Below are positions 24,764 through 26,138 of a stretch of 39,032 nt of DNA, piece by piece. The translations under genes and the position numbers were made by a program. The stretch's first letter is position 1. Every line of letters starts with the position of its first letter. This stretch comes from a virus (taxonomy: Duplodnaviria > Heunggongvirae > Uroviricota > Caudoviricetes), in the IMG/VR virus record IMGVR_UViG_649989948_000008, positions 1 through 39,032 of that record. The stretch is one strand, 5' to 3'. The notes beneath the pieces were generated by a model. It did not search any database. It had not been told where the DNA came from and saw only the letters and a list, made by a program, of their open reading frames with translations.

Positions 24764-25576
24764 TCACGGCAGTTTTGCTCTAATTTCGAGTAATTTCTGT
24801 GCCGTTATGCTGATTTCATACGCCAGATCTTGTGTTTGGTTAATGATTCCGTAATAGCGCTCAACCTGATCAGGATAAAAACGTCTGATATGGGGGATAT
24901 CGATATAATCATAATACCCAAGCCCTCCAGCAGAATGTTCTCTGAACAGCGCCCAAAAGTTGTTCACTTTCCCGACCAACTCCATACGGATTGTTTCTAA
25001 AACAACATCATTGAAGCTGTAAAAGGGGTTATGGGCAATATTATCAAATGCGTAGAGAGGGTCGGTAATGTCGGTGCTAACTTTTGCCCGGAACTGTTCG
25101 CTCTTCAGCATTTGGAGGTAGTTGTAATTAAAAATATCAGTAATGGCTTTTAAAACACCGACGTCTCTTTCTGAGTAATTGTTCTGACTCACCTGGTGCG
25201 TCATCTGTAGCAGAAGAGATTGTTGAGTTTCGGCCAGCTGCTTCCAGTTTTTCAATTGCTCAACGGAATAGATAGTGTAGTCAGAGTCAATGAGTGCGCC
25301 ATGTGAACGACACATCCATATACCGTTATCAATCGAGCTTCGCTGTTCTGGGGTTAAGCTAGGATCATATCTCGGTCCACCTGGCGCTGCTGCTGTAATA
25401 TGTGCCGCAATACCATTATTAATCCTGCTGTTTGTATCACTGCTATCTGGACCTACAGTTGTCTGGTTGCAGCCAGGATAAGAGCACTTCCAGCCTACGC
25501 GTTCGGCTAGTGTTCGCTTCACCGATGGGGAAAAATCATCTCTGTTACTCACATTTAACCTCGCAGTGTTAAACAA
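24764..25576 (-). CDS. HNH (His-Me finger) nuclease-domain protein with an uncharacterised C-terminal domain
   Basis: N-terminal CSYPGC ... AAHI ... DNGIWMCRSHGALID resembles an HNH-type nuclease motif; the ~170-aa C-terminal region has no recognisable motif. Confidence 0.5.
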   Translation of the reverse strand: MFNTARLNVSNRDDFSPSVKRTLAERVGWKCSYPGCNQTTVGPDSSDTNSRINNGIAAHITAAAPGGPRYDPSLTPEQRSSIDNGIWMCRSHGALIDSDYTIYSVEQLKNWKQLAETQQSLLLQMTHQVSQNNYSERDVGVLKAITDIFNYNYLQMLKSEQFRAKVSTDITDPLYAFDNIAHNPFYSFNDVVLETIRMELVGKVNNFWALFREHSAGGLGYYDYIDIPHIRRFYPDQVERYYGIINQTQDLAYEISITAQKLLEIRAKLP

Positions 25577-25583
25577 TCTATGG

Positions 25584-26138
25584 CTATTTGCGTTTGTCTT
25601 CTTTCAAGCGTGAAACTTTAATCATCTTATCGGTGATAGAAAGCAATGTTACACCCTCTTTTTCGTTCACAAAGCCTGCACCGTTAATCACCATTACTAA
25701 ACGATCCTTCCCTCGATAGACTTCATAATACTTGCCTGCACCACAGGTCTTTGTCTCAATACAGTCCATACCTGAGATAGCTTCTTGGTCGAAAATTCTG
25801 TCTTTCGTTGCTACCGGTTTTCCGTACTCCCTTGTCATCATTTCACCGATCTGCATGAACGTATACTTACCGACATTTGTCGTTAAAGACGATTCAACCT
25901 TTCCATCAATGAGATTTCCATGCGTATGTGGTTCCTGTTCATTCGGTGCATTTTTATCTTGAAGAGCGAATACCTCAATACTGGGTGTTTGCTCTTGGAA
26001 CTGGGCTTTATAGTTCTGTGCAAGATCGCTTTTATCTCTACCTATTAAGGTAATTTTGTCGATCTCCGATTCGTTACATCCCGTCAGAGCGAGCATGATT
26101 ACCAGAGAGGCAAGAATATTGAGGTTGCGCTTATTCAT
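25584..26138 (-). CDS. lipoprotein (hypothetical), probable start at the internal Met
   Basis: MNKRNLNILASLVIMLALTGC signal peptide with lipobox; GGAG RBS 7 nt upstream of the ATG at 26138 (track ORF extends to 26165). Confidence 0.55.
   Translation of the reverse strand: MNKRNLNILASLVIMLALTGCNESEIDKITLIGRDKSDLAQNYKAQFQEQTPSIEVFALQDKNAPNEQEPHTHGNLIDGKVESSLTTNVGKYTFMQIGEMMTREYGKPVATKDRIFDQEAISGMDCIETKTCGAGKYYEVYRGKDRLVMVINGAGFVNEKEGVTLLSITDKMIKVSRLKEDKRK

Follow-up and report, generated by a model that had tools for sequence, protein, structure and literature searches.

What do the two neighbouring minus-strand genes at 24764–26138 of the viral sequence IMGVR_UViG_649989948_000008 do, and do they do it together? 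We analysed the whole 39,032-nt stretch of this record (hereafter the window), in which one of the two genes encodes a putative HNH nuclease and the other a predicted lipoprotein. A first-pass annotation had put the pair forward as an uncharacterized two-gene system. We find that the lipoprotein and the nuclease are not a two-gene system. The nuclease instead combines a familiar effector with an uncatalogued, putative control module, and we lean towards the view that this 262-aa protein acts alone, as a one-gene DNase of defence or abortive infection that is activated by oligomerization and carried as optional phage-plasmid cargo. The earlier suggestion of defence or abortive-infection cargo thus agrees with where the relatives and neighbourhoods of the nuclease appear to point. 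Both minus-strand open reading frames (ORFs) claimed for the interval are present, and the motifs quoted from them, CSYPGC, AAHI, DNGIWMCRSHGALID and the lipobox LTGC, all occur in their translations. The features are as follows.

24764..25576, minus strand: nuclease ORF as first read, 270 aa from TTG 25576
24764..25552, minus strand: nuclease gene with revised start, GTG 25552, stop TGA 24764-24766, 262 aa
25199..25552, minus strand: HNH (His-Me finger) nuclease domain of the Cap5/SPARHA clade, residues ~1–118, with invariant H51, N76, H84, D89, C23, C28 and C81
24767..25183, minus strand: four-helix module, residues ~124–262, with the motif NPFYSFNDVVLETIRMEL; proposed sensor or oligomerization switch
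25584..26138, minus strand: predicted lipoprotein gene, 184 aa from ATG 26138 (193 aa from GTG 26165)

The 270-aa ORF exists as first described, and only its start needs revision. The TTG at 25576 would add eight codons relative to the GTG at 25552, and the true start is most likely the GTG, because a Shine-Dalgarno sequence, GAGG, can be read 6 nt 5′ of it, because the protein then opens with MSNRDDF, as all homologues do, and because near-identical database entries are annotated at 262 aa (homologues and database entries together span 261–266 aa). At E ≤ 1e-3, 421 homologues of the nuclease were recovered, and 34 alignment columns are invariant over 39 full-length family members; for the lipoprotein there are 16 homologous clusters. 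Judged by this conservation, neither ORF arises by chance. The nuclease falls in phrog_21516, a PHROG without known function (E 4e-181, aa 19–270 of the 270-aa version). Its family extends through many orders of Proteobacteria, while the HNH domain alone reaches many phyla. A tblastn search of 50,697 phage records found no close copy. The protein has no signal peptide and is predicted to be cytoplasmic.

The first-pass annotation had described an HNH-like N terminus fused to a domain that it could not assign, and both halves of that description hold. Pfam and NCBIfam returned nothing above threshold for the nuclease (best Pfam match HNH_2, E 0.21), and the HNH assignment is based on PADLOC models, structure comparison and PDB profiles. 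The PADLOC matches are PDC-M68A (8e-25, the best), the CBASS endonuclease effector (8e-20), the N terminus of an SduA model (6e-17) and SAVED_HNH (8e-17). In the profile search that had been proposed as a check, all of these defence-library matches were restricted to the HNH half, residues ~5–138. The top structural matches of the nuclease in the fold search are all Cap5, and the domain has the ββα-metal fold that is a feature of the Cap5–SPARHA clade. By sequence, its best PDB matches are SPARHA HNH-APAZ and Cap5, with the catalytic histidine and the metal-site helix aligned; SPARHA HNH-APAZ (9OM4) is the closest solved relative (E 5e-18, residues 10–121).

Four residues, H51 (within AAHI), N76, H84 and D89, are invariant in the 39 members; in 9om4, 8ysq and 7rwk their aligned counterparts are the AHI and C..H..L.D motifs. 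By analogy with His56 and His91/Asp95 of PsCap5 (PMC12141522), H51 would be the general base and H84 and D89 would lie on the metal-site helix, with N76 as a probable structural asparagine. C23, C28 and C81 are likewise invariant, are placed as in SPARHA and Cap5, and may contribute to a putative structural zinc site. HNH domains of the Cap5/SPARHA type are non-specific DNases that become active only after sensor-driven formation of tetramers or filaments, with a composite active site (PMC12141522, PMC12738770), and the clade has been reported joined to many immune sensor platforms (PMC12738770). The same HNH domain, with a different C terminus, is found in the P2-EC46 Z-region beside a Lit-like gene.

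The C-terminal half has no match in Pfam, PADLOC or the PDB. Structure prediction, another of the checks proposed earlier, confidently gave an all-helical four-helix bundle, and the fold searches found no similarity to known DNA-binding or modified-base-binding folds. A profile of the module only, searched against 1.84 billion representative proteins, recovered 175 at E ≤ 1e-3. Twenty-two of them (E ≤ 1e-30) are the nuclease family itself, and the remainder have the module after other N termini. The motif [ND]PxFxFx[DN]xxLExLR is common to the family and the distant modules, and D130, P176, F180 and L185 of the window protein are invariant positions of the module.

N-terminal domains were scanned in 142 module-bearing representatives. 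HNH domains precede the module as classical HNH of PF01844 (19 proteins), HNH_3 (6), HNH_2 (4) and HNH_5 (3). TIR domains do so as TIR_2 (3) and as one CAP12/Pycsar-type TIR (1.6e-34). DUF4062 was found in three, Mrr_cat (1.4e-9), Schlafen AlbA_2 and a protein kinase in one each, and a predicted N-terminal transmembrane helix in 31. The N termini of module relatives match models for the LmuA N terminus, the ZorE/Cap5 HNH, a type IV restriction endonuclease (P0168), PDC-S60, ThsB/PDC-S66 and PD-T4-6; none of the defence-effector models covers the module. A word-indexed search with the distant-module profile returned nine proteins only, a protein with transmembrane helix and module had almost no tblastn matches in phages and plasmids, and a TIR-module protein sits on a 1.2-kb contig.

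In single-protein immune systems, a sensor or regulatory domain would be expected to stay conserved while the effectors joined to it are exchanged, which is the layout of this module. A role as an oligomerization switch would fit as well, because several of the partner effectors (Cap5-type HNH domains, TIR domains, membrane helices) are known to work as higher-order assemblies. We therefore raise, tentatively and at less than even confidence, the possibility that the module is a previously undescribed and widespread infection-sensing or oligomerization-switch domain of bacterial immunity, whose effectors would fall into five or more classes: HNH nucleases, of Cap5 type and others; Mrr-type nucleases; TIR domains; membrane-spanning helices; and DUF4062, Schlafen or kinase domains. 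Under the same tentative proposal, the window protein, which is intact in pHCM2, would be a working single-gene abortive-infection system missed by PADLOC v2 and DefenseFinder v1.3.0.

In the mechanism that we envisage for the single-gene DNase, the four-helix module would replace the SAVED or Argonaute sensor. It would detect an infection cue and switch the nuclease into an oligomer, and the HNH domains of this active oligomer would cut DNA non-specifically, so that either the infected cell is killed or the invading DNA is destroyed. The lysogen population, and hence the phage-plasmid, would thereby be protected from competing phages and mobile elements.

The nuclease was compared with the closest known systems. 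Cap5 (HNH-SAVED; PDB 7RWK, 8FMF and 9DIH) has a like HNH domain, whereas the C-terminal half of the window protein is an unrelated four-helix bundle with no similarity to SAVED. No CD-NTase or other CBASS gene lies near the nuclease in the window or in 10 other contexts, and the window neighbours have no PADLOC matches. As the protein has no SAVED domain and no CD-NTase neighbour, a cognate synthase of cyclic nucleotides from an adjacent gene could not be what activates it. The HNH domain is shared with SPARHA HNH-APAZ (the match to 9OM4 covers residues 10–121 only); unlike SPARHA HNH-APAZ, the window nuclease has no APAZ domain, is 262 rather than 435 aa long and is a single gene. No short prokaryotic Argonaute, Argonaute or PIWI gene lies beside the nuclease in any context examined. 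Membership of CBASS and of SPARHA was accordingly rejected, with neither a SAVED or APAZ domain nor a CD-NTase or prokaryotic Argonaute neighbour. The match to PDC-M68A spans profile positions 4–125 of 253 only, and the C-terminal halves differ. PDC-M68 is a PADLOC candidate, which from its name we take to be multi-gene, whereas the window nuclease family is autonomous; no PDC-M68 match was found among the neighbours scanned. Our literature search found nothing on PDC-M68, on pHCM2 together with HNH, or on 8YSQ.

A further parallel is ORF2 of the P2-EC46 Z-region, a 'lysogenic conversion protein' of 368 aa (phrog_34329), with 39.5% identity over aa 1–174 and matches to the same PADLOC models. 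Both proteins are cargo of prophages or mobile elements, and the matches end at about residue 125–138. ORF1 of the same region (L023 2118-3119; L numbers denote fetched loci), beside this HNH paralogue, resembles the Lit abortive-infection protease (PADLOC 5.5e-11). The Shedu SduA model PDLC00406 is matched at positions 10–132 of 326 only, its N-terminal HNH part, and Shedu identity was rejected because Pfam gave no match to DUF4263 (PD-(D/E)xK). The END nucleases (PMC12191111) are phospholipase D-based and unrelated. The integron systems Epona, Divona, Sirona and Nemetona, and SduA with its variable N termini, are likewise small single-gene nucleases with an extra domain, found in cassettes or defence islands (10.1101/2024.07.02.601686). 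Identity with Sirona or Nemetona is unlikely, because a reference-genome scan found no Vibrio cholerae genome among the full-length nuclease hits. PADLOC v2 has no full-length model for the nuclease, and a large survey that used DefenseFinder v1.3.0 reported S. Typhi phage-plasmids of the pHCM2-like kind to be without defence systems (10.1101/2025.09.12.675607), although pHCM2 has the intact gene.

The proposal that the lipoprotein and the HNH protein form one system, for instance with an envelope sensor and a nuclease executor acting jointly in defence, abortive infection or exclusion, starts from their arrangement. Within the lineage the two genes always keep the same order and orientation, 31–52 nt apart with no terminator between them, and pHCM2 as well as elements of Citrobacter, Kluyvera, Buttiauxella and Enterobacter retain the pair, down to a nuclease identity of 52%. 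Of the loci fetched, 33 have the nuclease module, 20 the lipoprotein and 16 both, and all 16 are enterobacterial contigs of phage-plasmid type. This linkage is broken in both directions, even within the lineage. Lipoprotein-alone loci (L172, L173 and L014-L017) include Citrobacter freundii phage-plasmids of pHCM2-like layout, in which the lipoprotein (91% aa identity) abuts phoH; the IncY plasmid pTetA_020022 (68% identity, L173 2492-3046), with no HNH gene nearby; and the Kluyvera georgiana chromosome (63% identity, L017 1770-2324) with related metagenome contigs, again with no HNH gene nearby. The lipoprotein is thus mobile cargo by itself. The Kluyvera region also holds remnants of a type I restriction–modification system and GerE and EAL genes.

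Conversely, a Raoultella phage-plasmid has the nuclease (53% identity) without the lipoprotein, after an unrelated 203-aa coiled-coil protein. The lipoprotein is missing at all 17 nuclease loci beyond the phage-plasmid lineage, where the nuclease also occurs as a single-gene Vibrio integron cassette. The divergence of the two proteins is uncoupled (nuclease/lipoprotein identities of 93%/66%, 98%/90% and 52–57%/67–69%), which argues for recombination between the two genes. The lipoprotein family comprises 16 clusters as against a phylum-wide nuclease family, and export of the lipoprotein, predicted from its lipobox and two conserved cysteines, would leave it no access to a cytoplasmic nuclease. 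Two decay variants were also seen. In an IMG/VR contig (L112 5001-5900), the nuclease is cut off at residue 159 by a deletion that runs into the integrase gene and leaves the lipoprotein intact; in a turkey E. coli plasmid (CP059946.1, L171 2273-3054), an internal deletion leaves only nuclease residues 1–18 and 225–261, and the lipoprotein gene has an apparent frameshift. Joint action is accordingly very improbable, and adjacency within one element lineage was here no evidence of a functional pair.

The earlier identification of the neighbouring gene as a lipoprotein is borne out by its predicted features. Its ATG at 26138 is preceded by GGAG, as read from the sequence, and its N terminus, MNKRNLNILASLVIMLALTGC, carries a signal peptide ending in the lipobox LTGC, of the form [LVI][ASTVI][GAS]C, with Cys21 followed by Asn at +2. 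In the family alignment L18, T19, G20 and C21 are nearly invariant and Cys 126 and Cys 132 are invariant. Pfam LPAM_1 scored under its cut-off (E 0.071). The protein is predicted to be exported and lipidated. It belongs to phrog_15156 (6e-114), a PHROG without known function, and its homologues form 16 clusters of 59–99% identity, all in Enterobacteriaceae. Pfam, NCBIfam and PADLOC gave no match above cut-off, with no similarity to any named family, and the AlphaFold2 model is poor (predicted local distance difference test score, pLDDT, 55).

Taken by itself, the lipoprotein is probably an independent moron, a separate passenger gene, and with low confidence we suggest for it a possible role in excluding superinfection or in surface modification. 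T5 Llp and phi80/N15 Cor are prophage outer-membrane lipoproteins involved in exclusion. Like them, the window lipoprotein would be small, exported cargo of a temperate element, of the type expressed in lysogens; its sequence resembles no named family in the searches made, and the structure model (pLDDT 55) is too poor to compare.

The genomic company of the nuclease family, outside the phage-plasmids, is listed here by host.

Shewanella: between an MvaI/BcnI restriction–modification system and a complete Septu system (PtuA 2e-134, PtuB 2.5e-86)
Yersinia: in an integrase/AlpA island, adjoining a type I restriction–modification system
Klebsiella: in an integrase island beside pth-ychF
Xenorhabdus: alone among insertion sequence elements
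Pseudomonas aeruginosa integrative and conjugative element: behind a small helix-turn-helix (HTH) gene resembling restriction–modification control (C) proteins and CapH
Burkholderia: in an island adjoining mutS
Vibrio parahaemolyticus: one-gene integron cassette, the gene being flanked on each side by an attC-like repeat of ~130 nt that is present in 11 copies over 11 kb
Metagenome contig with a classical-HNH-plus-module relative: small island with a predicted pPIWI-associated nuclease (pP_pnuc_1), a DUF6602 protein and a Lar-like gene

Compact defence systems have documented reservoirs in both integron cassettes and P2/P4 hotspots (10.1101/2024.07.02.601686, PMC13586616). The P. aeruginosa HTH gene (L009 5702-5998) encodes 98 aa and lies 2 nt 5′ of the family member, which suggests transcriptional gating of a toxic gene there; the window has no equivalent HTH gene beside the nuclease. 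In relatives of the phage-plasmid studied here, cargo of the slot region includes a YafO toxin–antitoxin, an Acb2/Tad1-hairpin protein and PF21825.

The window itself is an SSU5/pHCM2-like phage-plasmid. The DNA surrounding the pair shares 95–98% identity with Cyrano and CMS-2020a, two Escherichia phages that are phage-plasmids of the SSU5 type and that cover only 55–60% of the 5 kb around it. The first-pass annotation had correctly placed the pair between the integrase and glutaredoxin genes on one side and the tRNA cluster on the other, in the following setting.

22586-22972, plus strand: XRE-type HTH gene
22967-24070, minus strand: tyrosine integrase gene
24281-24529, minus strand: GrxA glutaredoxin gene (grx)
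24526-24651, minus strand: 41-aa ORF inside the slot, matching phrog_27585 over its full length (E 2e-34) and overlapping the grx start codon
24546..26265, no strand, ~1.7 kb: replaceable cargo slot between grx and the tRNA cluster, holding the 41-aa ORF, the nuclease and the lipoprotein
24721-24694, minus strand: hairpin AATAATAGGTAA-TGAC-TTACCTATTATT after the nuclease stop, no canonical U-tract
24751-24731, minus strand: hairpin TCCCTCTAC-ATA-GTAGAGGGA after the nuclease stop, no canonical U-tract
26232..26259, minus strand: promoter-like TTGACT-16-TATGGT upstream of the lipoprotein gene, from a consensus scan
26265..26288, minus strand: hairpin AAAGGGGC-TTCG-GCCCCTTT with T-run, ending the tRNA-side unit at the breakpoint; upstream edge of the slot
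26443-26993, minus strand: tRNA-Ser(TGA), tRNA-Thr(TGT), tRNA-Tyr(GTA) and tRNA-Asn(GTT)

The slot has sharp edges. In blastn comparison with three relatives (Cyrano and two CMS-2020a records, SCU-107 and SCU-175), homology stops at ~24534–24545 and resumes at 26266. Between these points Cyrano holds a gp49-family gene, SCU-107 a 302-aa protein without known function, and SCU-175 a 637-aa DUF1737/SASA-esterase/DUF6645 protein. Among PLSDB plasmids, 80 contain the DNA of the pair; of 5,426 complete E. coli genomes, 20 do, each time on a plasmid. The backbone DNA ligase gene (window 28600-29900) is found in 413 plasmids and 246 E. coli genomes, so that 80 of 413 related plasmids, and 20 of the 246 E. 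coli genomes with such a phage-plasmid, carry the pair. By genus the fractions are 36/42 in Salmonella, 23/220 in Escherichia and 0/43 in Yersinia. In pHCM2 (S. Typhi CT18) both genes are intact and annotated only as hypothetical proteins. The presence/absence comparison proposed in the first-pass annotation therefore yields the answer anticipated there: the pair is accessory cargo, not core, and does not belong to the replication block.

Several signals bear on the expression of the pair. The GGGGC-TTCG-GCCCC-T6 hairpin at the upstream edge was read by eye and had been missed by the terminator scan. The TTGACT-16-TATGGT site is a pattern match only, in a region that has fewer such sites than shuffled sequence. 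The two hairpins after the nuclease (24694..24751) are putative terminators, and the 31-nt gap between lipoprotein and nuclease contains no terminator. From these pattern matches, the two genes probably form one transcription unit here, in a moron-like layout; their co-transcription would be due to position only.

Further variation surrounds the slot. The HTH gene, which is repressor-like, is convergent with the integrase gene, the two overlapping by 6 nt at their 3′ ends, and a promoter-like site (24710-24682) lies ahead of the 41-aa ORF, a recurring small phage ORF. The tRNA set differs among relatives: in Cyrano the cluster consists of Ser, Thr and Asn, separated by a few bases, whereas the window adds tRNA-Tyr and a 217-nt Ser–Thr spacer. 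The 637-aa protein of SCU-175 (L003 4777-6690) replaces grx as well as the pair and could be a surface-glycan-modifying or lysogenic-conversion function. A second variable slot lies between integrase and grx (window 24071-24280), ~210 nt here against 0.9–1.15 kb in relatives, where it contains a 184-aa hypothetical protein (Cyrano, L001 4720-5600) or a 174/202-aa protein with a YafO-family toxin (CMS-2020a, L002 4704-5856; Citrobacter phage-plasmids, L018 7622-8553). Small anti-defence-like genes occur between the nuclease and grx in relatives, as with the Acb2/Tad1-hairpin protein of the Raoultella phage-plasmid (L022 6006-6251) and a PF21825 'Sequestin' family protein beside phoH and gp49 (L018 6732-6899; pHCM2, L169 2465-2668). 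Defence-type and counter-defence-type cargo thus seem to share the region.

How well does the single-gene defence or abortive-infection DNase account for these observations? It builds on domain identity, intact catalytic residues, a confident fold, reuse of the module, one-gene autonomy, and accessory or defence-island contexts. From these we infer nuclease activity, the existence of a trigger, oligomerization and the phenotype. Several points weigh against it. The module has neither a recognizable binding site nor a known relative. The oligomerization step is one that we infer by carrying it over from Cap5 and SPARHA. Alignment of the family module with 48 distant modules by hhalign (99.5% probability, E 4e-22, 133 columns) is supportive but not fully independent, the distant modules having been recruited by the family's own profile, and their hmmsearch E-values of 1e-4 to 1e-9 against 1.8 billion proteins are significant yet modest. 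The evidence from context comes from a handful of loci and is not a statistical enrichment. Sirona and Nemetona, finally, are told apart from the nuclease by their descriptions only (type II restriction endonuclease, NinG His-Me related, not Cap5).

The protein could alternatively be a solitary type IV-like restriction enzyme, dependent on a modification or another feature of DNA, in which the module binds a feature of foreign DNA and the HNH domain cleaves the invader without killing the cell. Such enzymes are typically built of a nuclease and a variable sensor in a single polypeptide and have no methyltransferase (PMC12191111). Family members adjoin restriction–modification systems, the HNH domain of one module relative matches the type IV model P0168, and the EVE-HNH enzyme VcaM4I appears weakly in the fold search, at rank 42. 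We nevertheless judge this unlikely. The module is also fused to transmembrane helices and to TIR, kinase and DUF4062 domains, none of which acts on DNA; the HNH domain groups with the non-specific DNases of the Cap5/SPARHA clade, which are activated as oligomers, and not with the dimeric restriction-enzyme clades (PMC12738770); and the four-helix bundle resembles no known fold that binds DNA or modified bases. Somewhat less probable still is a nuclease serving the phage-plasmid's own life cycle, by degrading host DNA or aiding recombination or packaging, or an addiction toxin with an antitoxin. The gene is encoded by the phage-plasmid, a YafO toxin module occupies neighbouring slots in relatives, and the small HTH gene 5′ of the P. 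aeruginosa nuclease could be an antitoxin or regulator. Yet about 80% of related phage-plasmids have no nuclease, which makes it dispensable for the cycle; the gene is not near the terminase or replication genes, a conserved small partner gene is missing from most contexts, and the family resides mostly in chromosomes or in elements other than phages.

Free-standing HNH homing genes are common in phages, and the presence/absence polymorphism of the nuclease at a fixed position between conserved genes could reflect homing by such an endonuclease or by another selfish nuclease. This is extremely improbable. Pfam homing-type HNH families are unmatched (only HNH_2 appears, at E 0.21), and the protein has no DNA-binding module of the homing-enzyme kind. 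Alleles without the pair hold unrelated cargo, not an empty target site, and the family is found in integron cassettes, integrative and conjugative elements and chromosomal islands at unrelated sites, with a C-terminal module common to TIR and transmembrane proteins. The outcomes that the first-pass annotation had named as refuting its proposal, homology to a homing endonuclease or housekeeping function and conservation as core genes, were thus not observed. Of the readings weighed, we continue to prefer the single-gene immune DNase. The swappable module is worth testing, though single-gene nuclease candidates are numerous.

If this reading is correct, a compact 262-aa single-gene immune nuclease would be added to the known repertoire, together with a new control module present in ~175 representative protein clusters, whose interchangeable effectors would offer a handle on the infection cue that is sensed. 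Phage-plasmids of the SSU5/pHCM2 type would then bear anti-phage or anti-plasmid functions in a grx–tRNA hotspot that standard tools report as empty (10.1101/2025.09.12.675607). Because S. Typhi, Shigella sonnei and E. coli commonly harbour such phage-plasmids, these functions would be relevant to phage therapy and to competition among mobile elements.

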